This document shows, piece by piece, positions 3,538 to 63,142 of a DNA stretch of 64,000 nucleotides. Origin of the DNA: an uncultured Bacteroidales bacterium (GTDB lineage: Bacteria > Bacteroidota > Bacteroidia > Bacteroidales > JAGOPY01); the NCBI GenBank assembly GCA_964489545.1, contig CAZAZE010000001.1, positions 337,412 to 401,411 of the forward strand. The letters are read 5' to 3'. Every line of letters begins with the position of its first letter. Position 1 is the stretch's first letter. The notes under the pieces are model-generated. The model saw only the letters and a list, made by a program, of their open reading frames with translations, had not been told where the DNA came from and searched no databases. The position numbers and the translations under genes are program-made.

Positions 3538-5718
3538 ATGAAAAAAGCCTTCTTTCTCATCCTTACCGCGATGCTCCTGCACCAGGCCCCGGCCTTCACG
3601 CAGGTCAATGAGATCACCCTGAACGATGTCTTCGCCAGCCGCAAGTTCTTCCCCAAAGGAGTCTATGGCCTGAACCCGATGAAGGACGGGCTCACCTACT
3701 GCGTCCTGGAAGGCGACTCGCTGAATGCATACAACTATGAGTCCGGCGCGTTTGTCAGAAACCTCGTCGACCGCAACCAGCTGGTCCCCGAAGGCGATAC
3801 CGCCGCCATCCCTCTGGGCGACTTCACTTTCAGCGCAGATGAGAAAAAGCTCCTCATTGCCACCGAAACGGAATACATTTACCGCTATTCCTCGGCTTCG
3901 GAATTTTATATCTGGGACATAGAAAAGAAAAAGCTCACCCGCCTTTCCACCGGCGGCAAACAGCGGCTGGCGGATTTCTCACCCGACGGCAGCAAGGTGG
4001 CTTTTGTGCGCGACAACAACCTCTTCCTGGCCGATTTCACCAATAATACCGAATACCAGATCACCCTTGACGGCAAGCAGAACGAGATCATTAACGGGAC
4101 CACCGACTGGGTCTATGAGGAAGAGTTCGCTATCACCAAAGGCTTCGAATGGTCGCCCGACGGAAAACGCATCGCCTATTACCGCTTCGACGAAAGCCAG
4201 GTGAAGGAATTCTCGATGATGGAATGGGGCGCGCTGTACCCGGAGGTGACCCGGTTCAAATACCCCAAGGCCGGGGAGGACAATTCACAAGTGAACGTAT
4301 TTATATACGACGTGGGCGCCCAGCAGAGCACCCCGGTCGACCTGGGCATGGAATCCGACCAGTACATCCCCCGCATCCGGTGGACCAAAAACCCGGATAA
4401 GCTGGCCGTCATCCGCCTGAACCGCTTGCAGAACCTCTTCGACATCCTGATCGCCGATGCCGCCACGGGCCGGACTTCCATGATTTACCGTGAAGACAAC
4501 CCCTACTACATTGAAGATAGCCACTTCGATCACGTGATCTTCATCGACGGAAACCGCTACCTCACCACCAGCGAACGATCCGGCTATTACCATATATACC
4601 TCAATTTCATTGACCTTTCATCGAAAGGCGTGCAGCTCACCAAAGGGGAATGGGACGTGACCGACATTCATGGCTATGATGCCGCCAACGGGTTGATCTG
4701 GTTCAGCGCCGCCACCTCCTCCCCCATCAACCGGGAGCTCTGGACGGTCGACCTGAAGGGCGAAATGAAACAGGTCAGCCGGGAAACCGGGACCCACAGG
4801 CCGCAGTTCAGCACAACCTACAAGTACTACATCAACAATTACAGCGACGCGGCCACCCCGCCGGTCCACACCGTAAACAAGCCCAACGGCAAGGTAATCC
4901 GCACACTTGAAGACAACCAGGCGCTGCGCGACCGGATGGCTGAATATGGCTTTTCGCAGAAGGAATTCTTCACCTTCACCACTTCTGAAGGGGTGCTGCT
5001 TTATGGTTGGAGGATCCTGCCGCCAGACTTCGACGCGGCGAAGAAATACCCGGTACTGATGACCGTCTACGGCGGCCCGGGCTCGCAAACGGTTCAAAAC
5101 AGCTACAGTGCAGGAGATTTTGCCTGGTACCAGATGCTGGCCCGCAAAGGGTACATCATCGCTTCGGTCGATAACCGCGGTACCGGTGCTCGAGGACAGG
5201 AGTTCAAGAAGATGACCTACCTGCAGCTCGGCAAGTATGAGACGATCGACCAGATCGAAGCGGCCAAGTATTTCGCCGCACAGCCTTACGTCGACCCGGC
5301 GCGCATCGGCATCTGGGGCTGGAGCTACGGCGGGTTCATGTCGACCCTCTGCATCACCAAAGGAGCGGATGTATTCAGCACCGCCATTGCCGTGGCCCCG
5401 GTGACCAACTGGCGGTATTACGACAACATTTACACCGAACGTTTCATGCGTACCCCGGCGGAAAATCCCGGCGGATACGACGACAACTCACCCATCAACC
5501 ATGTCGACAAGCTCAAGGGCAATTACCTGGTCATCCACGGCACCGCCGACGACAATGTGCACGTTCAGAACACTATGGATCTTATCTCGGCCCTCAACAA
5601 AGCCGGCAAGCAGTATGAGATGTTCCTCTACCCGAACAAGAACCACGGCATTTACGGCGGCAACACCCGGCTGCATCTTTATACGATGATGACGGAATAT
5701 TTGCTGGATAAACTGTAA
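3538..5718 (+). CDS. Dipeptidyl-peptidase IV (S9B family serine peptidase)
   Basis: N-terminal beta-propeller DPP-IV region and a C-terminal alpha/beta hydrolase with the GWSYGG nucleophile elbow. Signal peptide MKKAFFLILTAMLL. The start is moved to the internal ATG 3538, because the ORF-track start at 3517 overlaps the promoter box. Confidence 0.88.
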   Translation: MKKAFFLILTAMLLHQAPAFTQVNEITLNDVFASRKFFPKGVYGLNPMKDGLTYCVLEGDSLNAYNYESGAFVRNLVDRNQLVPEGDTAAIPLGDFTFSADEKKLLIATETEYIYRYSSASEFYIWDIEKKKLTRLSTGGKQRLADFSPDGSKVAFVRDNNLFLADFTNNTEYQITLDGKQNEIINGTTDWVYEEEFAITKGFEWSPDGKRIAYYRFDESQVKEFSMMEWGALYPEVTRFKYPKAGEDNSQVNVFIYDVGAQQSTPVDLGMESDQYIPRIRWTKNPDKLAVIRLNRLQNLFDILIADAATGRTSMIYREDNPYYIEDSHFDHVIFIDGNRYLTTSERSGYYHIYLNFIDLSSKGVQLTKGEWDVTDIHGYDAANGLIWFSAATSSPINRELWTVDLKGEMKQVSRETGTHRPQFSTTYKYYINNYSDAATPPVHTVNKPNGKVIRTLEDNQALRDRMAEYGFSQKEFFTFTTSEGVLLYGWRILPPDFDAAKKYPVLMTVYGGPGSQTVQNSYSAGDFAWYQMLARKGYIIASVDNRGTGARGQEFKKMTYLQLGKYETIDQIEAAKYFAAQPYVDPARIGIWGWSYGGFMSTLCITKGADVFSTAIAVAPVTNWRYYDNIYTERFMRTPAENPGGYDDNSPINHVDKLKGNYLVIHGTADDNVHVQNTMDLISALNKAGKQYEMFLYPNKNHGIYGGNTRLHLYTMMTEYLLDKL

Positions 5719-30281: not shown

Positions 30282-32270
30282 CTAGTGTTTAGGGTTTAGA
30301 GTTTGGTGCTTAGTGTTTAATGACTGCTGACTGCTGACTGCTGACTGCTGACTGCTGACTGCTGACTGCTGACTGCCCACAGCCACCCGCAGTGTCACCA
30401 GGAAGTTGAACCCGGGCATGGGACGGTATGGGACAACCTGATAATCCATATTGAATATGTTATTTAAATTCATCTGGACGGTCAAAGGCAGGGAATGGCG
30501 CAGGGCCCATGTTTTTGATGCCACAACATCCATAAGAAAGTATCCCGGTAATGAATCCGCATTGTCTTTTGAAGTATAGATCAGACCGGTAAAATTGCCC
30601 CTGAGGAACAGCTCAAATCCCCTGAATGATATTCCTGGACGTACCGACGCCCGATGTATCGGCGTGTATATCAGCTGCTTATGATAGGATTCATCAAACT
30701 CAAACTGCTTCAGCTGGTTGGTCGACCGGGTGAAGGAATAATTGCCGTTGAAGCTTACACCCAGCCGGCCGAACTGCTGCTCATAACCGGTGCTGAGCTC
30801 TATACCCCGCGATAAGACCTTTTGTGCGTTTTCCACGGACCAAAAACTGGCCCCGGGAAGCCAGAGGATCCATCCGTCGACCAGGGAGGTATAGGCTGTC
30901 GCATCAAAACTAAGCCTGACATCCTTCAATGAGGGTTTAAGTGTCACGCCTGCTTCGAAATTCCAGCTCTTCTCCGGCTCGAGTCCGGGATTTCCACCGG
31001 GGACCCAGAAGCGTTCATTCAGTGTCGGGGCCCTGAAATTTCGGGATACGCTCAGGCGTCCGGAAAGGAATTTCCACAGCGGGCCCTGAAAGCCAGCGGA
31101 GAAGAGGAAAGGCGGACGGTAACCAGTCACGAATTCCTGCCGGCCGTTCAGGCTGAATTGCCATTTGAACGGCGTGAAATCATGGCTGAAAGACGCATAC
31201 AGGCTGATCGACTGCTGATCTTCCGCCTGGGCGTAGAAATCCAGGTCGGCAAACTCATAAGTGTACTGTACACCGGCCAGCAAAACGGAACGGGGCGAAA
31301 ATTCCAGGCTGTTCTCTGCGGATGCGGCAGCAGTCTGGCTCCTGATCACGGAGTATACTTCTCCGGAAGGATCCGTATACCGCGTAAATTCATTGAAATA
31401 GGCTATCCGGGCCTCCTGAACCGACTTACGGTTATAGTTCTTCCACGACAGCATGCCGCGCCAGGAGCGGTCGATCTGGCTGGCTTCCGATTCATTCTGG
31501 GTCAGGGTCGGGGGAATATCGCGCCCGGCATACTGAAACCACAGGCTGGCCATCAGGTACTGCTGGCCGGATAATTTAAGAGACAGGTCCTGCAAAAAAC
31601 CGCCGCGTGAAACCGAAGCATGATCCAGCTTATCACGGTTTCCATATAAATCATTATAGGAAAAATCATTCTGTGACCCGTTCAGTGACCAGGCCGTTCT
31701 CGAAAACAATTTTTCACCGGACCATTCCGCGCTCCCTTCGAGGGCAAAGGTGCGAAAACTGCCTGCAGAGAAAGCTGCGGTGATTTTAGCGGCTGAAGGA
31801 CCGAAGACCGGACGGGTGGAAAGGTGCAGGCTGCCGCCGATGGCACCGCTGCCGAATATCGGGCTGGCTCCGCCGTAAAGCAGGGATATATCCTTAAAAA
31901 AGCCGCCCTGTATCAGGGAAAGGTCGACATAACCGATATTGGGCGGGGAAACTCTGATGCCGTTCCAGAACAGGCTGGTATGGTTGGCCGAGGTGCCCCG
32001 AAGAGAAAACGTGGCCAGCGTTCCCTGTCCGTAGTTTCTCACATAAGCCCCGGTGAGGCCGGTCAGTAATTCTGATAAGGTGGCGGCAGGGATCCGCATC
32101 CGGTCCAGGCTGTCGAACGAAACTGACTGTTGCCCTTTGGCATAACGGTTGATCCTTGAAGAAGTGATGTGAACATCCGGGAGCGACAATACCGTATCGG
32201 GCGCGCTATCCTGGCCGCTTGCCGCGACCGCAGCCAGAACCATCAACCATGTCATCAATTTTCCACGCAT
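30282..32270 (-). CDS. btuB: TonB-dependent outer-membrane receptor, vitamin B12 transporter BtuB-like
   Basis: Plug and 22-strand barrel features (TonB box region DTVLSLPDVHITSS; YGGASPIFGSGAIGG). Preceded by a cobalamin riboswitch. The start is set at ATG 32270 (MRGKLMTWLMVLAAVAASG signal peptide). The last 34 codons are repeat-encoded. Confidence 0.88.
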   Translation of the reverse strand: MRGKLMTWLMVLAAVAASGQDSAPDTVLSLPDVHITSSRINRYAKGQQSVSFDSLDRMRIPAATLSELLTGLTGAYVRNYGQGTLATFSLRGTSANHTSLFWNGIRVSPPNIGYVDLSLIQGGFFKDISLLYGGASPIFGSGAIGGSLHLSTRPVFGPSAAKITAAFSAGSFRTFALEGSAEWSGEKLFSRTAWSLNGSQNDFSYNDLYGNRDKLDHASVSRGGFLQDLSLKLSGQQYLMASLWFQYAGRDIPPTLTQNESEASQIDRSWRGMLSWKNYNRKSVQEARIAYFNEFTRYTDPSGEVYSVIRSQTAAASAENSLEFSPRSVLLAGVQYTYEFADLDFYAQAEDQQSISLYASFSHDFTPFKWQFSLNGRQEFVTGYRPPFLFSAGFQGPLWKFLSGRLSVSRNFRAPTLNERFWVPGGNPGLEPEKSWNFEAGVTLKPSLKDVRLSFDATAYTSLVDGWILWLPGASFWSVENAQKVLSRGIELSTGYEQQFGRLGVSFNGNYSFTRSTNQLKQFEFDESYHKQLIYTPIHRASVRPGISFRGFELFLRGNFTGLIYTSKDNADSLPGYFLMDVVASKTWALRHSLPLTVQMNLNNIFNMDYQVVPYRPMPGFNFLVTLRVAVGSQQSAVSSQQSAVSSQQSLNTKHQTLNPKH
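30285..30376. repeat. Composite tandem heptamer array: 5 degenerate GTGTTTA units (30285-30319) plus 8 perfect TGACTGC units (30321-30376)
   Basis: Read directly from the sequence. It fills the btuB / propeller-gene junction and is translated as the btuB C-terminal tail. Confidence 0.95.
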
Positions 32271-32351: not shown

Positions 32352-32566
32352 CTGTTTTTGATCACCAATGGCAGGTTTTCTGACTTGACCTGTCTGCCGG
32401 CGGCCTTCCCGTTCTGCGCATCGCTGAGCGGAACAGTGGCAAAGGGTGCCGGAGAACTTGGCCCGGAAGGGCCAGGGCTTACAGCAGCGGGTACTGTCCG
32501 GGATTCACACCCGGTTCCCTATTATGTCGTGTTCCATGAAACGGTTCACGACCACCATTGATCCGG
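32352..32566 (-). promoter_or_regulatory. Cobalamin (adenosylcobalamin/B12) riboswitch
   Basis: The minus strand contains AGGGAACCGGGTGTGAATCCCGGACAGTACCCGCTGCTGTAAGC, GCCACTG...GGGAAGGC, and the B12 box AAGTCAGAAAACCTGCC, in the canonical order and spacing. Confidence 0.88.
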
Positions 32567-32574
32567 CAAAGTTA
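32567..32574 (-). promoter_or_regulatory. Bacteroidota -7 promoter box (TAACTTTG) for the riboswitch-btuB transcript
   Basis: Reverse complement of caaagtta, placed just 5' of the riboswitch P1 region. Confidence 0.5.
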
Positions 32575-39103: not shown

Positions 39104-39117
39104 AGTAGAAAAAGAAA

Positions 39118-39156
39118 AGTTCCCGAACTTAAACCTTAAACCCTAAAACTTAAACC
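39118..39156 (-). repeat. 39-nt dispersed element, copy 1 (reverse orientation): GGTTTAAGTTTTAGGGTTTAAGGTTTAAGTTCGGGAACT
   Basis: Differs at only 2-3 positions from the copies at 41517-41555 and 49694-49732. The ftsY stop codon TAA (39150-39152) lies inside it. Confidence 0.9.
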
Positions 39157-40106
39157 TCCCCAAAGAGGCTGTCCACAAACTCATACCGGTCGAACACCTG
39201 GAGGTCGCCGATCTTTTCGCCGATTCCGATATATTTTACGGGAATCTTAAACTGGTCGGAGATCCCGATGGCGACGCCGCCTTTGGCCGTACCGTCGAGC
39301 TTGGTGAGGGCCAGTGCGTTGACTTCTGTCGCGGCGGTGAATTGCCGGGCCTGTTCGATGGCATTCTGGCCCGTGCTGGCGTCGAGTACGAGGAGCACTT
39401 CATGGGGCGCTTCGGGAATCACTTTCTGGATCACCCGTTTGATCTTGGCCAGTTCGTTCATCAGGTTGATCTTATTGTGGAGCCGTCCTGCGGTGTCGAT
39501 GATCACCACGTCGTAGCCCTGGCTGTGGGCCGCTTTCACTGTATCGAAGGCCACTGCCGCCGGATCGGCGTTCATGCCCTGGGCGATGATAGGCACCCCG
39601 GCGCGTTCGGCCCAGATGGTCAGCTGGTCAACCGCTGCGGCGCGAAAGGTGTCGGCAGCGCCGACCAGCACCGACTTGCCGGCGTTCCTGAACTGATGCG
39701 CCAGTTTGCCGATGGTTGTGGTTTTACCGACGCCGTTCACGCCGACCACCATGATCACATAGGGCCTGGGAAGCGCTTCGGAAGCGAAGTCAAACCGCTC
39801 GCCGGTCTCGTTCTCCTGCAGCAGCGCCGCAATCTCTTCCTTGAGGATGCGGTTCAACTCTTCCGTTCCGATGAACTTATCACGGGCCACCCTTTGCTGG
39901 ATCCGTTCGATGATCTTCAGGGTGGTCTCCACCCCTACGTCGCTGGTGACGAGGATCTCTTCCAGGTTATCCAGCACTTCCTCATCCACGCGCGATTTTC
40001 CGACCAGGGCGCGCGAGATCCTCGAGAAAACGCTTTGGCGGGTTTTATCCAGCCCTTTATCAAGGCTTTCTTTTTTTTCTTTGGAGAAAAACGAAAACAG
40101 GCCCAT
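39150..40106 (-). CDS. ftsY: Signal recognition particle receptor FtsY
   Basis: SRP54-type GTPase motifs GVNGVGKTTT, DTAGR and TKLDG. Confidence 0.95.
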   Translation of the reverse strand: MGLFSFFSKEKKESLDKGLDKTRQSVFSRISRALVGKSRVDEEVLDNLEEILVTSDVGVETTLKIIERIQQRVARDKFIGTEELNRILKEEIAALLQENETGERFDFASEALPRPYVIMVVGVNGVGKTTTIGKLAHQFRNAGKSVLVGAADTFRAAAVDQLTIWAERAGVPIIAQGMNADPAAVAFDTVKAAHSQGYDVVIIDTAGRLHNKINLMNELAKIKRVIQKVIPEAPHEVLLVLDASTGQNAIEQARQFTAATEVNALALTKLDGTAKGGVAIGISDQFKIPVKYIGIGEKIGDLQVFDRYEFVDSLFGEV

Positions 40107-41523: not shown

Positions 41524-41609
41524 GTTTTGAGGGTTAAGGTTTAAGTTCGGGAACTTATAATTTAGAACTCCAACTTAAACCTTAAACCTTAAACCTTAAA
41601 CCTTAAAGT
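41517..41609. repeat. 39-nt dispersed element copy 2 (41517-41555) plus an inverted (CTTAAAC)4-5 arm (41564-41609); candidate bidirectional terminator
   Basis: GGTTTAAGTTTTGAGGGTTAAGGTTTAAGTTCGGGAACT, then a loop, then AGAACTCCAACTTAAACCTTAAACCTTAAACCTTAAACCTTAAAG. Both convergent stop codons are embedded in the element. Confidence 0.9.
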
Positions 41610-48833: not shown

Positions 48834-49694
48834 ATGCCAGGGATTAAACCCACCATCATCGCCTTGCTTATCCTGATCACCGGCACACTGAAATCCCAGG
48901 TCCCGGATTTCTGCCTGACCCGGGATGAATACCGGCTGTACACCCTGATCAATGATTTTCGGGAAAAGCAGGGCCTTCCAGTCGTACCGGTCTCCCGCGC
49001 ACTCTGTTACGTGGCCAAGATCCACGCCCGCGACCTGTATCACAATAACCCCGACACCTCATTCTGCAGCCTGAACAGCTGGTCGGACAAAGGCGAATGG
49101 ACTGCGTGCTGTCATTCCCGCTTCACGCCCAATCCTTCCTGCATCGTCAACAAGCCGAAAGAACTTGCCGGGTACGCCGGCGAAGGGCATGAGCTGGTTT
49201 ACTGGGACAGCCAGGGCAATCACCCGGACACGGCCATGCGTTTCTGGACGAGCATCGCGCAGGCCCGGGAAGTTTTGCTCAATCAGAACAAATGGAGCTA
49301 TTTCAACTGGCGGGCGATGGGCGTCGGCCTGTACCAGGGATATGCCTGCGTGTGGTTCGGAGAAGTGCCGGACACACTTTCCGAGCCTACCTTGTGCGCC
49401 AATGCGGCGGGTTCAGATTTCCTGGTGCTGCCGATGAAAGGAGCGGACATGAAAGGCGTAATTACGGCACCTGAAGGCAGACACTACCTCATCTTCGGAA
49501 GTTTCAACTCATTGGAGGATGCGCAAAAAGTCGCGGAGAAATACCGCAAGGACGGGTTCTACCAGGCTAAGGTTATTGTTAAAGAAAATACGTACAGAGT
49601 GTCCCTTTCCGATCACGCCACGCAGGAAGAAGCTTTGAACGCACGGAAAATGCTTGGCACGGAATACAAAGAAGCCTGGATAACAAAATACTAG
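48834..49694 (+). CDS. CAP (SCP/PR-1-like) domain plus SPOR domain protein
   Basis: N-terminal signal. CAP-like region (LINDFREKQGLPVVPVSRALCYVAKIHARDL). C-terminal SPOR (YLIFGSFNSLEDAQKVAEKYRKDGFYQAKV...YRVSL). Confidence 0.7.
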   Translation: MPGIKPTIIALLILITGTLKSQVPDFCLTRDEYRLYTLINDFREKQGLPVVPVSRALCYVAKIHARDLYHNNPDTSFCSLNSWSDKGEWTACCHSRFTPNPSCIVNKPKELAGYAGEGHELVYWDSQGNHPDTAMRFWTSIAQAREVLLNQNKWSYFNWRAMGVGLYQGYACVWFGEVPDTLSEPTLCANAAGSDFLVLPMKGADMKGVITAPEGRHYLIFGSFNSLEDAQKVAEKYRKDGFYQAKVIVKENTYRVSLSDHATQEEALNARKMLGTEYKEAWITKY

Positions 49695-49783
49695 GTTTAA
49701 GTTTTGAGGTTTAAGGTTTAAGTTGGGGAACTTAAAACCAATGAACTTCAACTTAAACCTTAAACCTTAAACCTCAAAACTTC
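49694..49783. repeat. 39-nt dispersed element copy 3 (49694-49732) plus an inverted copy (49743-49783); candidate bidirectional terminator
   Basis: GGTTTAAGTTTTGAGGTTTAAGGTTTAAGTTGGGGAACT ... GAACTTCAACTTAAACCTTAAACCTTAAACCTCAAAACTTC. The right arm encodes the last residues (VLRFKV) and the stop of sucD. Confidence 0.9.
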
Positions 49784-50647: not shown

Positions 50648-50675
50648 GTGTTTAGTGGTTTGTGTTTAGTGTTTA
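50648..50675. repeat. Tandem heptamer array (GTGTTTA x3 plus one variant), equal to TAAACAC on the sucD coding strand
   Basis: gtgttta gtggttt gtgttta gtgttta, ending 9 nt upstream of the sucD start codon. Confidence 0.9.
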
Positions 50676-50774
50676 ATTTTGAATTGACTCCTACCACTTT
50701 ACTCCTTGCACAGTTGTGGGAGGGGGCTGACGGGCAAATGTAAAGAATTTTACCCATCCCCGCCCAGTTTTCGC

Positions 50775-50804: not shown

Positions 50805-52232
50805 ATGATCTACTCATCCGAAAACCAGACCATATGCGCCATCGCGACGCCGCCGGGCCACGGCGCCATCGCCATCATCCGGGTCAGCGGACCCGAAGCG
50901 CTGCGGATCTGTGAAGCGGTTTTTGTTCCCCGTAAAGCCGGGAAAAACATCACGGAAGCCGCGACGCACACCATCCATTTCGGGACGGTCGAGCACGGCG
51001 AAGAGCTCATCGACGAGGTGCTGGTCAGCGTATTCCGGGAGCCGCACTCTTACACGGGCGAAAACGCCGTGGAGATCTCCTGCCACGGTTCGTCGTACAT
51101 CCAGCAAAAGATCGTCGAACTGCTCATCAGCCAGGGCGCCCGGCACGCGAAGCCGGGGGAATTCACGATGCGCGCCTTCCAGCACGGCAAATTCGACCTG
51201 GCGCAGGCCGAGGCGGTGGCCGACCTGATTGCCGCAGAATCCAAATCGGCCCACGACCTGGCCCTGGACCAGATGCGCGGCGGCTATTCCCGGAAGATCA
51301 GCGCACTGCGCGCCCAGTTGCTCGATTTCGCCTCGCTGATCGAACTGGAACTGGATTTCAGCCAGGAAGACGTGGAATTCGCCGACCGGCCCGCCCTGAT
51401 CAGGCTGCTGGAGGAGATCAAACCGGAGATCGTTCAGCTGGTTTCTTCCTTCTCCTACGGCAACGTGCTCAAGACCGGGATACCCGTGGCGATCGCCGGG
51501 CGGCCGAATGTCGGGAAATCGACCCTGCTCAATGCCATCCTCAACGAAGAGCGGGCCATCGTTTCGGAGATCCCCGGCACCACGCGCGATACCATTGAAG
51601 ACACGATCATCGTCAGCAATTTCGCCTTCCGGTTCATCGACACTGCCGGCCTTCGTCATTCCACCGACAAAATCGAGAACCTGGGCATCGAGAGAACCCA
51701 CGAGAAGATCCGGCAGGCGGCGATTGTTTTGTATGTGTTTGATGTTCGTGATGCCGAAGGCGAAAGGTTCCTGAACCAGTTCCAGGTTCCAGGTTCCAGG
51801 TTCCAGGATATTGATGAAGACCGCCAACTTCCGGCTGCTGACGACACGAAATTCATTTTCATTGGGAATAAATCCGATCTGCTCGAGGAGACGCCTGCCC
51901 ATTTAAAAGAACTTTTAGAAAAGCAATGCATTTTTATTTCCGCGAAACGCAAGGAGAATATCAACCTGGTCCTGGACCGGCTGGTGGAGACCGTCAGCGG
52001 GATGAACATACAGGACCGGACGGTGGTTTCCAATGTCCGGCATTTTGAAGCGCTCACAGAGGCCGGCAAAGCGGTTGACGCAGTGCTAAGCGGGCTGCAG
52101 GCCGGCCTGAGCGGCGACCTGCTCACGGTCGATCTTCGCAGCGCCCTGTTCCACCTGGGCACCATCACCGGGGAGATCACGACCGATGAGATCCTGGGGA
52201 ATATTTTCGGGAGGTTCTGTATCGGAAAGTAG
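50805..52232 (+). CDS. mnmE: tRNA modification GTPase MnmE (TrmE)
   Basis: G1 GRPNVGKSTL, G3 DTAG, G4 NKSD, and the C-terminal FCIGK tetrapeptide. Contains an in-frame heptamer-repeat insert between G3 and G4. Confidence 0.95.
   Translation: MIYSSENQTICAIATPPGHGAIAIIRVSGPEALRICEAVFVPRKAGKNITEAATHTIHFGTVEHGEELIDEVLVSVFREPHSYTGENAVEISCHGSSYIQQKIVELLISQGARHAKPGEFTMRAFQHGKFDLAQAEAVADLIAAESKSAHDLALDQMRGGYSRKISALRAQLLDFASLIELELDFSQEDVEFADRPALIRLLEEIKPEIVQLVSSFSYGNVLKTGIPVAIAGRPNVGKSTLLNAILNEERAIVSEIPGTTRDTIEDTIIVSNFAFRFIDTAGLRHSTDKIENLGIERTHEKIRQAAIVLYVFDVRDAEGERFLNQFQVPGSRFQDIDEDRQLPAADDTKFIFIGNKSDLLEETPAHLKELLEKQCIFISAKRKENINLVLDRLVETVSGMNIQDRTVVSNVRHFEALTEAGKAVDAVLSGLQAGLSGDLLTVDLRSALFHLGTITGEITTDEILGNIFGRFCIGK
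51778..51807 (+). repeat. Intragenic tandem heptamer array (AGTTCCA, then GGTTCCA x3, then GG) inside mnmE
   Basis: Read directly from the sequence. It encodes QFQVPGSRFQ and is preceded by the palindrome GGTTCCTGAACC. Confidence 0.9.
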
Positions 52233-52287
52233 GACTGTAGGACGGTAAGACGGTAAGACGGTAGGACGGTAAGACGGTAGGACGGGG
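52232..52287. repeat. Tandem octamer array (RGACGGTA x7), starting at the last base of the mnmE stop codon
   Basis: ggactgta ggacggta agacggta agacggta ggacggta agacggta ggacgggg, followed by GCATTAAAA. Confidence 0.92.
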
Positions 52288-58846: not shown

Positions 58847-60277
58847 ATGGACCGAGAAATCCTCAGCACCAACCGAAAAGCACTGAAAATCAACCTGAAT
58901 CCCAGTGTGTACGGTAGTTTCGCTGAAATAGGCGGCGGGCAGGAAGTCGCCAGGCACTTTTTCCAGGCCGGAGGCGCATCCGGCACCATCGCCAAAACCA
59001 TCTCAGCTTACGATAAAGCCTTCAGCGATGCGCTATATGAATGCAGCGAAACCGTACGTTATGTTTCCGAAGAACGGCTCAATGAAATGCTTGCCGCAGA
59101 ATACGAAGAACTCTCTTCAATCCTCGGTCAGTCGAGGGGTGGAAACACGCTGTTCTTCTCCTTCGCCAATACAGTGGAAACGCTCAATTACCAGAAAACC
59201 AACCGCGGGCATGGCTGGATCGGCATGCGTTTCCAACTCAGGCCCGAAACCCCGCCCAACCAGGTCATCCTTCATGTCAACCTCCTGGAAAACGACGGCC
59301 TGATGCAACAGGCGACACTGGGAATCCTGGGCGTTAATCTGATCTTTGCCTGTTTCATCTATTACGAATTCCCCAGCCAGTTCCTGCGCTCCCTGCTGGA
59401 TAATCTCTCCACCGACCGGCTGGAGATCACCATGATCCGGATGTCGGGACCCGACCTGGCGTATGTCGATAACCGCCTGCTGAGCGTTCAGCTCGTTAAA
59501 AACGGGATGACCAAAGCCATCATGTTCGACCGGCATGGAAATGTCAGGCAACCCTACGACATGCTGTACAAGAAAAATGTACTGGCTTTCCGGGGTAGCT
59601 TCCGGCCCGTAACCTACACCATGCTGGATATGCTCAGGACCAGTTACCGTATTTTTAAAAAAGACGAGGATTACGAAAAAGACAACACGATTTCCCTGTG
59701 TGAGATCACCCTCAATAACCTGATGCAGGAAGGGGATCTTGATGAGCGGGATTTCCTGGACCGGGTAGACTTGCTGAATGGAATGGGACAAAACGTGATG
59801 GTGTCCACCTTCCGGGAGTACTACAAACTGGTGGTCTATTTTTCGCAGTTCAGGATCCGAAAACTCAGGATCGTGATCGGGATCCCCACACTGATGAATT
59901 TCCTGGAGAAGAAATATTACACCGACCTGCGCGGCGGCATCCTGGAGGCCATGGGGAAATTCTTCATCGACAACATGAAACTGTATGTTTATCCCACCAT
60001 CTCTTCAGTATCCATCGATGATCCGACCAAAGGCGAAGAGCTCATTACCTCGGGAAATATCCTGCTGGCCGACGACATTCGCGACCTTTACCAGTACCTT
60101 ATCAAGAACAAGATGATCATTGATATTACCAATGTGAAGAAAGAATGGCTTTGGATCAACTCCCAGATTGTCATCAGCATGATCCGGGACGGAGTCCCTG
60201 GCTGGGAAGAAATGGTACCGAAGTATATTTCCGAAGAGATCAGGAAAAAGAAACTTTTCGGATATAAAGGCGATTAG
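58847..60277 (+). CDS. Conserved hypothetical protein (476 aa), function unknown
   Basis: Long ORF with gene-like composition and the N-terminal motif YGSFAEIGGGQEVARHFFQAGGASGTIAKTISAYD. Start set at ATG 58847, downstream of the hairpin. Confidence 0.65.
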   Translation: MDREILSTNRKALKINLNPSVYGSFAEIGGGQEVARHFFQAGGASGTIAKTISAYDKAFSDALYECSETVRYVSEERLNEMLAAEYEELSSILGQSRGGNTLFFSFANTVETLNYQKTNRGHGWIGMRFQLRPETPPNQVILHVNLLENDGLMQQATLGILGVNLIFACFIYYEFPSQFLRSLLDNLSTDRLEITMIRMSGPDLAYVDNRLLSVQLVKNGMTKAIMFDRHGNVRQPYDMLYKKNVLAFRGSFRPVTYTMLDMLRTSYRIFKKDEDYEKDNTISLCEITLNNLMQEGDLDERDFLDRVDLLNGMGQNVMVSTFREYYKLVVYFSQFRIRKLRIVIGIPTLMNFLEKKYYTDLRGGILEAMGKFFIDNMKLYVYPTISSVSIDDPTKGEELITSGNILLADDIRDLYQYLIKNKMIIDITNVKKEWLWINSQIVISMIRDGVPGWEEMVPKYISEEIRKKKLFGYKGD

Positions 60278-60288
60278 GCGGTCGATTG

Positions 60289-60315
60289 GCAGCAGTCAGC
60301 AGCCAGCAGTCAGCG
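60289..60315. repeat. Degenerate tandem heptamer array (GCAGTCA/CAGCAGT type)
   Basis: gcagcagtcagcagccagcagtcagcg begins 12 nt after the upstream stop. It is the same unit as the btuB-tail array (reverse complement of TGACTGC) and is followed by TTCATTAAA. Confidence 0.8.
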
Positions 60316-60373
60316 TTCATTAAATGACATTTCAATTTCAAGCTCAATCTAAACTATCAACTTTAAACTTAAC

Positions 60374-60401
60374 TTTGATCTTTGAACTTTGAACCTTGAA
60401 C
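60374..60401. repeat. Tandem heptamer array (TTTGATC, TTTGAAC x2, CTTGAAC), ending 4 nt before the rarA ATG
   Basis: Read directly from the sequence. Confidence 0.85.
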
Positions 60402-60405
60402 TGCA

Positions 60406-61671
60406 ATGTCCGTTCCTCTTGCAGAAATATTGCGGCCGAAGGGCCTGGATGATTTCCTGGGCCAGGAGCACCTGGTGGGAACGCATTCCATTCTCCGGAA
60501 AGTCATCGAATCGGGCAGGATCCCGTCGATGATCTTCTGGGGGCCGCCGGGCGTCGGGAAAACCACGCTGGCCCATATCATCAGCGGTCAGCTGGGCGTT
60601 CCTTTCTTCACGCTCAGCGCTGTCAGTTCAGGTGTTAAGGAGGTGCGCAGCGTCATCGAACAGGCCGGTGATTCTCCCACGGGGGCCATACTTTTCATCG
60701 ATGAAATCCACCGATTCAGCAAATCCCAGCAGGATTCGCTGCTGGGGGCCGTGGAAAAGGGCGTGATCACCCTGATCGGCGCCACTACTGAGAACCCGTC
60801 CTTTGAGGTCATCTCTCCCCTGCTGTCGCGCTGCCAGGTTTATATCCTGAAATCACTGGGCAAGGATGATCTGCTGAAATTACTCGCCAGTGCCATTTCA
60901 TACCTGGAAACACTGCACCAGAAAAAAATCAAACTGCAAGAGGATGAGGCCCTGCTGCGGATCTCCGGCGGGGATGCGCGCAAACTCCTTAATGCGCTTG
61001 AGCTTATCGTCAATACGGATATAAAGAACGATCCGATCGTCATCACCAACGAAAAAGCGCTGAGCATCATCCAGGAAAAACTGGCGATCTATGACAAGGG
61101 CGGCGAGATGCACTACGACGTGATCTCGGCCTTCATCAAATCGCTGCGCGGCAGCGATCCCAACGGGGCGGTCTACTGGCTGGCCCGGATGATCGAAGGC
61201 GGCGAGGACCCGCTCTTCATCGCGCGCCGGATGGTGATCCTGGCTTCGGAAGATATCGGAAACGCCAATCCCAACGCACTGCTGCTGGCCAATACCTGCT
61301 TCGACGCCATCCACAAGATCGGTATGCCCGAAGGCCGGATCATCCTGTCGCAAACGGCCGTCTACCTGGCCACTTCACCCAAGAGCAACGCATCGTACAT
61401 GGCGATCGAGGCGGCCATTGAAGAAACCCACCGGACGGGGGACCTGCCGGTGCCGCTGGCCATCCGCAACGCCCCGACAAGGCTGATGAAGGAGATCGGC
61501 TATGGGAAGAATTATCATTATGCCCATTCTTATGAAGGAAACTTCATTGAAATGGAATTCCTTCCTGATAAAATCAAAGGGAAAAAATTCTATGAACCAG
61601 GCAAAAACCGTAAGGAGGAAGAAATCCGGGCCTGGCTGAAGGCCAGGTGGAAGGAGAAATATGGCTATTAG
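60406..61671 (+). CDS. rarA: Replication-associated recombination protein A (MgsA/RarA AAA+ ATPase)
   Basis: Walker A GPPGVGKTT, Walker B ILFIDEIHRF, and the MgsA C-terminal domain (YDVISAFIKSLRGSDPNGAVYWLARM). Confidence 0.93.
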   Translation: MSVPLAEILRPKGLDDFLGQEHLVGTHSILRKVIESGRIPSMIFWGPPGVGKTTLAHIISGQLGVPFFTLSAVSSGVKEVRSVIEQAGDSPTGAILFIDEIHRFSKSQQDSLLGAVEKGVITLIGATTENPSFEVISPLLSRCQVYILKSLGKDDLLKLLASAISYLETLHQKKIKLQEDEALLRISGGDARKLLNALELIVNTDIKNDPIVITNEKALSIIQEKLAIYDKGGEMHYDVISAFIKSLRGSDPNGAVYWLARMIEGGEDPLFIARRMVILASEDIGNANPNALLLANTCFDAIHKIGMPEGRIILSQTAVYLATSPKSNASYMAIEAAIEETHRTGDLPVPLAIRNAPTRLMKEIGYGKNYHYAHSYEGNFIEMEFLPDKIKGKKFYEPGKNRKEEEIRAWLKARWKEKYGY

Positions 61672-61672
61672 C

Positions 61673-61707
61673 TTAAGGTTTAAGGTTTAAGGTTTAAGGT
61701 TTAAGTT
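61673..61707. repeat. Tandem heptamer array (TTAAGGT x4 plus TTAAGTT), starting 2 nt after the rarA stop
   Basis: Read directly from the sequence. It is the same unit as in the 39-nt dispersed element. Confidence 0.95.
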
Positions 61708-61732
61708 TAATTTTACACTAAGCCCTGAGCCC

Positions 61733-61774
61733 TAAACACTAAACACTAAACACTAAACACTAAACACTAAACAA
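61733..61774. repeat. Tandem heptamer array (TAAACAC x5 plus TAAACAA), ending 6 nt before the kdsA ATG
   Basis: Read directly from the sequence. Confidence 0.95.
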
Positions 61775-61780
61775 CATAAC

Positions 61781-62599
61781 ATGTTTGTTTTGCAAAACAT
61801 CCCCCGCCTGCATCACCATTCTTCGGGCAATTTTTTCCTCATCGCCGGCCCGTGCGTGGTTGAAAATGATACAACGCCCTTTCTCATTGCAGAGCAAGTG
61901 AAGGGTATCTGCGATAAATATCAGATCCCATACATCTTTAAGGCCTCCTTCAGGAAAGCCAACCGCACCCGGCTCGATTCATTCAGCGGGATAGGCGACA
62001 TCAAGGCCCTGGGCATCATCCGGCAGGTGGGTGAAAAATTTGCCATCCCCACGCTTACCGATATCCACACCGAAACGGATGCCGTGCGGGCGGCGGAATA
62101 CGCCGATGTGCTCCAGATCCCGGCCTTCCTCTGCCGGCAGACCGAATTGCTGGTCGCCGCCGCAAAAACCGGAAAAACAGTGAACATCAAGAAAGGCCAG
62201 TTCGTTTCACCCGAATCGATGAAATTCGCTGTCGACAAAGTCACTCAGTCGGGCAACCACAACGTGATCCTCACCGAACGAGGCACAACCTTCGGGTTTA
62301 ACGACCTGGTGGTCGATTTCCGGGGTATCCCCGTGATGAAAAGCCTTGGCGTCCCGGTTGTTTTGGATGTCACGCATTCCCTCCAGATCCCCAACCGCCC
62401 GGCCGGCACCTCCGGCGGGCATCCACAGTTCATCGAAACCCTCGCCAAAGCCGGAATTGCCGCCGGCGCCGACGGCATCTTCCTGGAAACCCACCCGGAT
62501 CCCGCATCGGCCAAATCAGACGGAGAAAACATGCTGCGGTTGGACTTCCTGGGACCATTGCTTGAAAAATTGGTCCGCGTGCGGAAAGCCATTTCCTGA
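61781..62599 (+). CDS. kdsA: 3-deoxy-8-phosphooctulonate (KDO-8-P) synthase
   Basis: 272 aa with FLIAGPCVVEN, KASFRKANRT, LQIPAFLCRQTELL and VLDVTHS motifs. Confidence 0.94.
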   Translation: MFVLQNIPRLHHHSSGNFFLIAGPCVVENDTTPFLIAEQVKGICDKYQIPYIFKASFRKANRTRLDSFSGIGDIKALGIIRQVGEKFAIPTLTDIHTETDAVRAAEYADVLQIPAFLCRQTELLVAAAKTGKTVNIKKGQFVSPESMKFAVDKVTQSGNHNVILTERGTTFGFNDLVVDFRGIPVMKSLGVPVVLDVTHSLQIPNRPAGTSGGHPQFIETLAKAGIAAGADGIFLETHPDPASAKSDGENMLRLDFLGPLLEKLVRVRKAIS

Positions 62600-62707: not shown

Positions 62708-63130
62708 ATGCCAAGACTCCTCATGATCATTCCCGTGATCCTGCTGGTCGGCTCCTGTAAAACTGCACAATTCACCCATCCCGATGATGATTCCGGCCGG
62801 AAGATCATCATTGGCGAGGGCGGCGGGTTTACAGGCCAGACGACCAAGGTGATCCTTCTTGAAAACGGTCAGTATTTCTCCCAGACCGTTTATCCGCAGG
62901 GCACCACCGCCATCGGCACCCTTAAGCGAAAAGACACCAGAGAAATTTTTGAAAGATTCGACGAGTTGAATTTTACAGAGATCGATTTTCAGCATCCCGG
63001 CAATATGACCTACTTCATCGGTCATCAGTCTGAGGGCGCTTACCATGAAGTAAAGTGGGGCGATTCTTCATTTCCTCCGCCTGAGAAGATCACCTCTTTC
63101 TACCAGTTCTTCAGAAGTAAAGTAAAGTAA
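62708..63130 (+). CDS. Hypothetical lipoprotein
   Basis: Lipobox (LLVGSC), 140 aa. Confidence 0.55.
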   Translation: MPRLLMIIPVILLVGSCKTAQFTHPDDDSGRKIIIGEGGGFTGQTTKVILLENGQYFSQTVYPQGTTAIGTLKRKDTREIFERFDELNFTEIDFQHPGNMTYFIGHQSEGAYHEVKWGDSSFPPPEKITSFYQFFRSKVK

Positions 63131-63142
63131 ACCTTCATCATT

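Follow-up and report, generated by a model that had tools for sequence, protein, structure and literature searches.

The spacer between rarA and kdsA in a 64,000-nucleotide stretch of DNA from an uncultured Bacteroidales bacterium (contig CAZAZE010000001.1, hereafter the window) is filled by two different tandem heptamer arrays, a TTAAGGT array behind the rarA stop codon (array A) and a TAAACAC array in front of the kdsA start codon (array B). The arrays occur in excess over chance, change their copy number by whole units, keep their layout in related genomes while the units change, and show an asymmetry in composition and predicted structure. On balance we lean to the view, modelled from these data, that both are slippage-driven heptamer repeats and that array B is tolerated or selected as an unstructured platform from which translation of kdsA could be initiated independently of a Shine-Dalgarno (SD) sequence.

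Anatomy of the rarA-kdsA spacer

The spacer comprises 109 nt (61672-61780). Together with its flanking genes it contains the following features:

60406-61671, plus strand: gene of a rarA/mgsA-like AAA+ ATPase (open reading frame, ORF; PF12002 MgsA_C, E = 4e-70; MgsA_C/AAA in Pfam)
61669-61671, plus strand: TAG stop codon of rarA
61673-61710, plus strand: array A (TTAAGGT), post-stop, 4.7 perfect copies followed by the decayed end TTAAGTTTAA
61712-61732, plus strand: three degenerate units of the array B type (TTTACAC, TAAGCCC, TGAGCCC), in phase with array B
61732-61773, plus strand: array B, 6.0 perfect copies in the register CTAAACA (= TAAACAC)
61767-61780, plus strand: non-repeated core CTAAACAACATAAC directly before the kdsA ATG, identical in the closest relative (L204/L205)
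61781-62599, plus strand: kdsA, encoding KDO-8-phosphate synthase (ORF; PF00793 DAHP_synth_1)

That two heptamer arrays fill this spacer had been claimed in a sequence-only reading of the window and was confirmed by the sequence, by Tandem Repeats Finder (TRF) and by an exact scan. A single C separates the rarA TAG from array A, which is perfect over 61673-61705 (4.7 copies) in the exact scan and reaches 61710 with 5.6 copies and 96% matches according to TRF. Array B can also be read in another register, as five perfect TAAACAC units plus TAAACAA. The earlier reading placed it against the kdsA start; the array ends 7 nt upstream of the ATG. The 25-nt linker described between the arrays exists as a stretch, but not as a separate part, since 61712-61732 holds three decayed units phased with array B. 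Judged by phase and letters, this segment is the decayed 5' part of array B.

Array B has a C content of 29%, lacks AUG and carries TAA in all three frames, and its predicted minimum free energy (MFE) is 0.0. It contains no G (0%), and no SD-like tetramer was detected before kdsA.

The arrays are genuine and exceed chance

None of 200 block shuffles of the window contained a period-7 array of at least 21 nt, and 14-mers of the two units gave 11 and 20 matches in the window versus about 0.2 expected. Three independently assembled short-read contigs (L001-L003; related contigs and loci are given by such numbers) match the window until they break inside the arrays. Contigs with identical KdsA or RarA were found solely in short-read Logan assemblies, and all of them end inside arrays. 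Because independent short-read contigs match the window and the nearest relative carries homologous arrays, the arrays are not an assembly artefact.

The spacer arrays are long simple sequence repeats of the heptanucleotide class. Their copies stand head to tail beyond chance expectation, their abundance is lineage-specific with period 7 predominant, and copy number changes by whole units. Heptamer arrays appear to fragment the short-read assemblies of this clade, and as they break assemblies of the lineage, such spacers are under-represented in metagenome-assembled genomes (MAGs). KdsA-encoding contigs of the lineage are often 1-5 kb long.

Orthologous spacers keep the layout and exchange the units

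A KdsA metagenome scan yielded 80 loci, and further contigs were obtained from protein look-ups. Relatives with 76-87% KdsA identity are referred to as close, those with 61-70% as distant. Adjacency of rarA and kdsA is widely kept at the scan loci. Nearly all orthologous spacers from about 15 related metagenomic genomes contain tandem 7- or 8-mers, with units differing between them, and the commonest layout is a G-containing array at the stop codon followed by a G-poor, A/T-rich array at the ATG. Spacers of relatives read as follows:

L126: (TTCCGGR)x11, then (AATTCAAA)x4
L128: (TTCCAGAG)x6, then (TTTCAAA)x3
L133 and L135: (TTCCAGTG)x3, then ATTTCTA/ATTTCAA
L132: (TTTTRAG)x5, then (TTTCAAG/TTTCTAA)x6
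L127: (TGTTGAA)x4
L202 and L203: (TTCCAAA)x3-5
L206, before kdsA: (TTTTGAA)x4

Pre-start units used elsewhere in the clade include the G-poor ATTTCAA, AATTCAAA, TTCCAAA and TTTTGAA and the nearly C-free, T-rich ATTTTTA and AATTTAA.

The closest relative, L204/L205, shows 87% KdsA protein identity and 82% DNA identity to the window; the protein database contained no relative with a KdsA identity between 87% and 100%. L204 keeps both units and the core CTAAACAACATAAC-ATG. Its array A comprises 2.7 copies compared to 4.7 in the window, its B-type units number about 13 compared to 6 perfect ones, including a 14-nt higher-order repeat, and decayed TAAACAC-type units stand where the window has its degenerate units (61712-61732). 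L204 and L205 are 100% identical over 3.6 kb and exhibit no copy-number variation. In L202 and L203, whose DNA is about 91% identical, the spacers upstream of rarA and of kdsA each show a difference of exactly two units (14 nt). L202, L203 and L206 carry hardly any arrays outside these two spacers, and the neighbouring operons contain none. A further relative, a MAG named 'Bacteroidales bacterium', shows 82% KdsA identity.

The spacer upstream of rarA is built in a similar manner. Many relatives carry a CAGCAGT-like array at its stop codon and an A/T-rich array at its start codon; CAGCAGT-related units were found at the equivalent site in L122, L202, L203, L204 and L126, and L204 has four perfect AACTTTG copies before rarA (2154-2185). 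This two-array spacer joins rarA to the gene of a protein of about 476 aa without Pfam match (58847-60277, plus strand), which lies upstream of rarA clade-wide (L202-L204, L206).

Two other kinds of sequence were observed behind the rarA stop codon. L134 (5930-5995) and L125 (1-60) contain a G/C-rich palindrome (CCCCTCCCCCAATTGGGGGAGGGG...) instead of the post-stop array; the palindrome-bearing spacer folds as a whole to -43.5 kcal/mol and ends with about 20 nt of G-poor sequence before the ATG. In L153, a more distant relative, a long telomere-like hexamer array of the CCCTAA/CCTAAC type follows just after the rarA stop (4935-5080).

Composition and predicted structure

Among the 19 spacers of at least 42 nt, G makes up 26% of the 21 nt behind the stop codon but 6% of the 21 nt in front of the ATG (Wilcoxon p = 3e-4), and the mean MFE rises from -7.3 kcal/mol in the first half to -2.2 kcal/mol in the second (p = 2e-4). 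The arrays of the window exhibit the same difference: all four pre-start arrays have an MFE of 0.0, the post-stop arrays of -7 to -12. Leaders in the window are generally less structured than coding sequence (median -2.9 versus -9.5 for 45-mers) and contain 16% G, and 13 of 51 reach an MFE of -0.5 or higher.

To open the initiation region of kdsA (-18 to +12), folding predicts a cost of 5.8 kcal/mol for the native sequence. It rises to 10.9-13.9 kcal/mol if array B is deleted and to 9.1 kcal/mol if the array is reverse-complemented. Random 42-mers in place of array B gave 8.4 +/- 2.0 kcal/mol with leader-like composition and 10.0 +/- 2.8 kcal/mol with genome composition, and only 3-5% of the random replacements were as low as the native sequence. 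The low opening cost together with the compositional asymmetry indicates that the common denominator of these spacers is a G-poor, unstructured stretch before the start codon and not a given heptamer.

Bacteroidia, as described for Flavobacterium johnsoniae, are poor in SD sequences and possess A-rich, unstructured regions upstream of their start codons (Baez 2019, PMC6847099). The genes of the window fit this description, as the sequence-only reading had assumed for Bacteroidota: SD-like tetramers precede only 7 of 51 genes, and upstream A peaks at -14 to -12.

Transcription of the spacer

Two features upstream of rarA bear on the question where the transcript across the spacer starts:

60359-60402, plus strand: pre-start array (AACTTTG)x6.6, ending 3 nt before the rarA ATG
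60370-60377, plus strand: putative -7 promoter box TAACTTTG, a match to TAnnTTTG that falls within the AACTTTG repeats and lies 28 nt upstream of the rarA start codon

Only 10% of the window is intergenic, but 22 of 36 TAnnTTTG matches fall there, typically 13-45 nt before a start codon. The AACTTTG heptamer resembles the Bacteroidota -7 box, and the spacing between the T-preceded copy and the rarA ATG is typical of a promoter. Hence, this tandem array may carry a promoter; the TAACTTTG box, a consensus match only, is conserved in L204. These boxes mark the host as a member of the Bacteroidota, as do neighbouring proteins with the Por_Secre_tail domain of the type IX secretion system (T9SS) and the label 'Bacteroidales bacterium' of the closest named relative.

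In the rarA-kdsA spacer itself no TAnnTTTG match was detected, the nearest sequences being TAAGTTTA and TAATTTTA, and we therefore rejected a promoter within it. Since there is a box before rarA and none in the spacer, and since some orthologous spacers measure no more than 14-20 nt, rarA and kdsA seem to be co-transcribed. To judge from these motif matches, the spacer arrays are probably intercistronic RNA of a rarA-kdsA transcript and not a 5' untranslated region (UTR) with a start of its own. From the earlier idea of a 5' leader, the unstructured, SD-less site in front of the start codon is retained, but a leader arising from its own promoter is improbable, as the spacer has no TAnnTTTG box.

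Further TAAACAC arrays

All three TAAACAC arrays of the window are located directly before start codons and in sense orientation, those of kdsA, sucD and a DUF5074 gene. The latter two, together with an adjacent array, are:

50648-50675, minus strand: TAAACAC array with one decayed unit among 4, its end 9 nt upstream of the sucD start codon
30285-30319, minus strand: decayed TAAACAC array of 5 units, its end 9 nt upstream of the DUF5074 start codon
30321-30376, minus strand: perfect (GCAGTCA)x8 array directly upstream of the array 30285-30319, the pair repeating the two-array layout

The sequence-only reading had already named the TAAACAC unit before sucD and before the start of this second gene, there called a lipoprotein, and both sites proved correct, on the minus strand and in sense. 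A TAnnTTTG box, TACATTTG (50735-50742, minus strand), lies upstream of the sucD array, and by this motif match the array would lie in a 5' UTR some 90 nt long.

TAAACAC fragments are no commoner than expected by chance in the window's 48 other leaders, so the unit is not a general leader motif. As it nevertheless stands at three unlinked starts within 64 kb, sequence-specific binding is conceivable. The earlier proposal that TAAACAC acts as a reusable leader module is thus supported in part: within the window the unit is found before starts and is unstructured, but it is not sequence-specific across the clade, where relatives use other G-poor units.

At least 118 (TAAACAC)3 stretches were found in species-representative genomes. 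Among the matches listed, 77 belong to Bacteroidota by record title, a share that is only indicative, and the non-Bacteroidota comprise Gemmataceae, a Chloroflexota MAG and various Gammaproteobacteria. Among the 95 listed arrays with enough flanking sequence, (TAAACAC)>=3 was found at most 25 nt upstream of the ATG of a long ORF 17 times in sense and 6 times in antisense; just after a stop codon, 24 read GTGTTTA and 11 TAAACAC. The arrays thus show a genuine though small bias in orientation; most of those elsewhere are away from starts, only 17 of the 95 lying at a start in sense.

Other arrays in the window

TRF and the exact scan detected about 15 arrays in the window, nearly all of period 7 (some of period 8) and nearly all at gene ends. 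Over the window and its relatives TRF found 35 period-7 and 9 period-8 arrays, again almost all at gene ends. The layout of a stop array followed by a start array occurs three times in the window, before rarA, before kdsA and between a btuB-like receptor gene and the DUF5074 gene. CAGCAGT/GCAGTCA units follow two gene ends, at 60290 and 30321. Features of this group are:

60290-60314, plus strand: post-stop array (CAGCAGT)x3.6 in the spacer upstream of rarA
39126-39157, minus strand: single TTAAGGT-type array, overlapping the stop codon of the gene 39150-40106 (minus strand) and followed by AAGTTCGGGAACTT
41527-41607, unstranded: two TTAAGGT-type arrays facing each other as an inverted pair between convergent genes, predicted hairpin MFE -40.5, z = -6.6
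49693-49782, unstranded: inverted pair of TTAAGGT-type arrays between a convergent SPOR-domain gene and sucD, predicted hairpin MFE -36.6, z = -6.2

TTAAGGT-type arrays abut or overlap six stop codons, always with TTAAGGT on the sense strand of the ending gene and always finishing with TTAAGTT; in four of the six the stop codon falls within a repeat unit. At three TTAAGTT ends (39105-39157, 41527-41560 and 49693-49735) SGGGAACTT follows, giving a small hairpin AAGTT-SGGG-AACTT. The TTAAGGT-type array plus this hairpin is probably the 39-nt element mentioned in the earlier reading. Array A behind rarA lacks the second half of the hairpin.

Several arrays extend into coding sequence. At the 3' end of sucD (49760-49782, minus strand) the last seven codons plus TAA (...EVLRFKV*) are made of TTAAGGT-type units. 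The ORF of the btuB-like TonB-dependent receptor continues across both the (GCAGTCA)x8 and the TAAACAC-like repeats (30282-30380, minus strand), which adds a tail ...LRVAVGSQQSAVSSQQSAVSSQQSLNTKHQTLNPKH beyond the apparent normal end of the barrel; apparently the stop codon that once ended the gene was lost to the repeats. Upstream of this receptor gene there is a cobalamin riboswitch (32353-32574, minus strand, 103 bits), whose 5' edge coincides with a TAACTTTG box (32567-32574), and the DUF5074 gene probably shares a B12-regulated transcript with the receptor. An Rfam scan of the window revealed only tRNAs and this riboswitch, and nothing in the rarA-kdsA spacer.

A perfect (GTTCCAG)x4.1 array lies in frame within mnmE (51779-51807, plus strand) and encodes QFQVPGSRFQ; units of the same type (GTTCCAGT/AGTTCCAG) form post-stop arrays in L128, L133 and L135. 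At the mnmE stop codon an 8-mer array, (GTAGGACG/GTAAGACG)x7 with a 24-nt higher-order period, begins (52229-52285, plus strand), and a related GTAAGACT array follows the stop of a different gene in L129. Furthermore, a pentamer array (AAGTA) was observed at the stop codon of a 140-aa ORF (63115-63131), the next start being 11 nt away. It comprises 3.4 copies in the window and in L001 (1371-1387) and 5.4 copies, one of them decayed, in L204 (4912-4938).

A possible role in the initiation of kdsA translation

According to the explanation we favour, the arrays would grow, shrink and change their unit by replication slippage followed by homogenisation; the gain and loss of whole units is observed, slippage is what we infer from it. 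The rarA-kdsA mRNA would start at the promoter in the array upstream of rarA, and the spacer would be transcribed as its intercistronic part. Array B would then provide a stretch of about 60 nt of unstructured RNA which parts the kdsA start from the structured 3' end of rarA and from array A, and in-silico folding and comparative composition suggest that ribosomes could load there without SD pairing. The constraint would act on composition and not on the exact heptamer, and the copy number of array B would be free to drift. Array A, in this view a single-arm copy of the dispersed post-stop element, has no clear role in the spacer, and facing TTAAGGT copies between convergent genes would form long hairpins.

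Several observations weigh against this explanation. Its functional steps are based on prediction, namely in-silico folding and comparative composition. At 5.8 kcal/mol, opening the native site still carries an appreciable cost, which originates from a small hairpin in the first kdsA codons. In L123, L124 and L127 (TGTTGAA) units, which contain G and AUG, reach the kdsA start. The spacer of L122 comprises only 14 nt and is array-free, as are, for the most part, the short A/T-rich ones of distant relatives; because some relatives have no array, an array is not required for kdsA expression. Self-structure had to be rejected as the cause of the orientation bias, as (TAAACAC)6 and (GTGTTTA)6 both fold to 0.0. 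Slippage combined with a compositional filter does not predict TAAACAC at three unlinked starts when it is not a general leader motif. Finally, the density of perfect period-7 arrays (9.4 per 100 kb for the window, 14.6 for the close relatives and 1.2 for the distant ones) speaks for lineage specificity, but the close-relative value is a biased estimate for those genomes because their loci were picked through kdsA.

It is also possible, if rather doubtful, that the spacers follow a clade-wide design by composition. A structure-prone, G-containing array at the stop codon and an unstructured, G-free array at the start codon would then be kept by selection despite slippage, and copy number would serve as an evolvable dial for SD-independent initiation and for the decoupling of adjacent cistrons. 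In that case the reuse of one unit at unlinked starts would point to an array-copying mechanism or a unit-specific factor. If array B sets kdsA translation, it would represent a natural, easily mutable means of tuning in bacteria which ignore SD sequences, and a simple part for expression engineering in Bacteroidota.

Alternative explanations

The main rival, a possible explanation that we consider clearly less probable than the one favoured above, regards the arrays as neutral, microsatellite-like filler without any positive effect on kdsA, the G-poor composition resulting from purifying selection against harmful arrays. Free turnover of units among relatives, some of which are array-free, is in line with it, as are the arrays that enter coding sequence (the tail of the btuB-like receptor, the C-terminus of SucD and the in-frame insert of MnmE) and the position of most listed (TAAACAC)n arrays away from starts. 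Less easily reconciled with mere filler is that the spacers upstream of rarA and kdsA bear arrays in nearly all clade members when the neighbouring operons have none. The compositional asymmetry and the opening cost, low compared to random inserts, fit selection, but a purely negative filter could mimic both. If the arrays are neutral, they represent one more case of lineage-specific heptamer microsatellites. An unlikely alternative is that the heptamers are sites for a sequence-specific factor, either RNA-binding (S1, Csp or CsrA-like) or DNA-binding, which co-regulates genes with the same unit. The fixed orientation at unlinked sites (TAAACAC before three starts, TTAAGGT after six stops, CAGCAGT after two) and the absence of TAAACAC as a general leader motif in the window would agree with this, and similar hypotheses have been put forward for the TAACTGA repeats of Beggiatoaceae (PMC4679880) and for the heptamers of Nostoc (bioRxiv 10.1101/2022.06.06.494920). 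Relatives with 76-83% KdsA identity have unrelated units at this position, however, so that the specificity would have to change quickly; kdsA, sucD and the gene of the DUF5074 protein share no evident common function, and no candidate factor was identified.

Pairing of arrays A and B (GGUUUA with UAAAC) to a regulatory hairpin, be it a terminator, an attenuator or a processing site, is very improbable. TAAACAC is two positions off TAAACCT, the exact complement of array A, the MFE structure joins array A to the degenerate stretch and to units one and two of array B (-21.5 kcal/mol for the whole spacer), and true inverted pairs of array A type fold strongly elsewhere in the window. Yet the spacer does not behave as an intrinsic terminator: z is -1.3 with 23 of 200 shuffles folding as well, a U-tract is absent, Rfam finds nothing here, and the 123-nt spacer of L204 has hardly any structure (-6.4 kcal/mol). 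The hairpin was rejected, its fold being no better than that of shuffles and not conserved in L204. Array B might act as a rut-like loading site for Rho that enforces polarity when kdsA is untranslated, which we regard as even less probable. About 60 nt of unstructured RNA with far more C than G resemble such a site, a resemblance only, but the unit contains no YC dinucleotides, and in many relatives the array before kdsA is rich in T and has almost no C (ATTTTTA, AATTTAA). Least probable of all is a phase-variable promoter or spacing element of a contingency locus. Whole-unit copy changes between relatives and the -7 box within the neighbouring AACTTTG array recall such loci. Here, however, the arrays lie between stop and start codons and not between promoter elements, the spacer has no promoter box, and they are flanked by housekeeping genes, the downstream one, kdsA, being neither a surface nor a restriction gene.

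Comparison with known systems

The REP/BIME sequences (repetitive extragenic palindromes/bacterial interspersed mosaic elements) of enterobacteria are imperfect palindromes of about 35 nt, located just after stop codons and often arranged as inverted pairs that form intergenic hairpins. The inverted TTAAGGT-type pairs at 41527-41607 and 49693-49782 resemble them, but consist of tandem heptamers and not of palindromic units. Six TTAAGGT copies within 64 kb lie at stop codons and end in TTAAGTT, and two inverted pairs fold with z of about -6; array A represents a single arm. Heterocystous cyanobacteria possess a characteristic set of short tandemly repeated repetitive (STRR) units, to which the present arrays do not belong, their host being a member of the Bacteroidota.

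In Nostoc PCC 7120 contiguous TTTTGAA/TTCAAAA units are found near the starts or promoters of many genes, and deletion of the heptamer repeats upstream of recO altered the output of a reporter (bioRxiv 10.1101/2022.06.06.494920). Contiguous units near starts are common to both systems, and L206 even carries a TTTTGAA array before kdsA. Apart from the different host, cyanobacteria use other sets of STRR units.

With the initiation regions of Bacteroidia (PMC6847099) the kdsA leader shares the lack of an SD sequence, low predicted pairing, A at -3 and -12 and the absence of a nearby AUG. It differs from these ordinary leaders by its tandem repeats and by C at -6 and T at -13. Compared to the SD-independent pattern (A at -3, -6, -12 and -13, no nearby AUG), the kdsA site is predicted to be unstructured, has A at two of the four positions and contains no AUG in the array.

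For long simple sequence repeats with units of 5-11 nt, the survey of Mrazek 2007, as summarised in a later report (PMC4679880), described heptanucleotides as commonest and abundance as sporadic and lineage-specific, with slippage as the proposed cause and units that are not multiples of three kept out of coding sequence. Predominance of heptamers and lineage-specific abundance apply to the present arrays, too. By the same summary, that survey defines a statistical class and not a functional element, and Bacteroidota are outside the top genomes named.

The closest match are the TAACTGA direct repeats that precede start codons in five Bacteroidetes, in cyanobacteria and in marine Beggiatoaceae (MacGregor 2015, PMC4679880). 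According to that report, some Bacteroidetes spacers contain several different heptamer arrays, some relatives with the same gene neighbourhood are repeat-free, and contigs of relatives end inside repeats, all of which we observed as well. Both systems consist of tandem heptamers whose unit includes stop codons and which lie, in forward orientation, close upstream of a start without SD sequence; the distances to the ATG are 7, 9 and 9 nt in the window. Differences concern the units, which are TAAACAC, TTAAGGT and others with many in one genome, and TRF detected no TAACTGA array in the window. A pairing of post-stop and pre-start arrays kept clade-wide with changing units was not found described in that report, as far as read, or elsewhere in a limited search of the literature. 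The rarA-kdsA arrays fit this already described kind of heptamer repeat in every tested respect except the unit.

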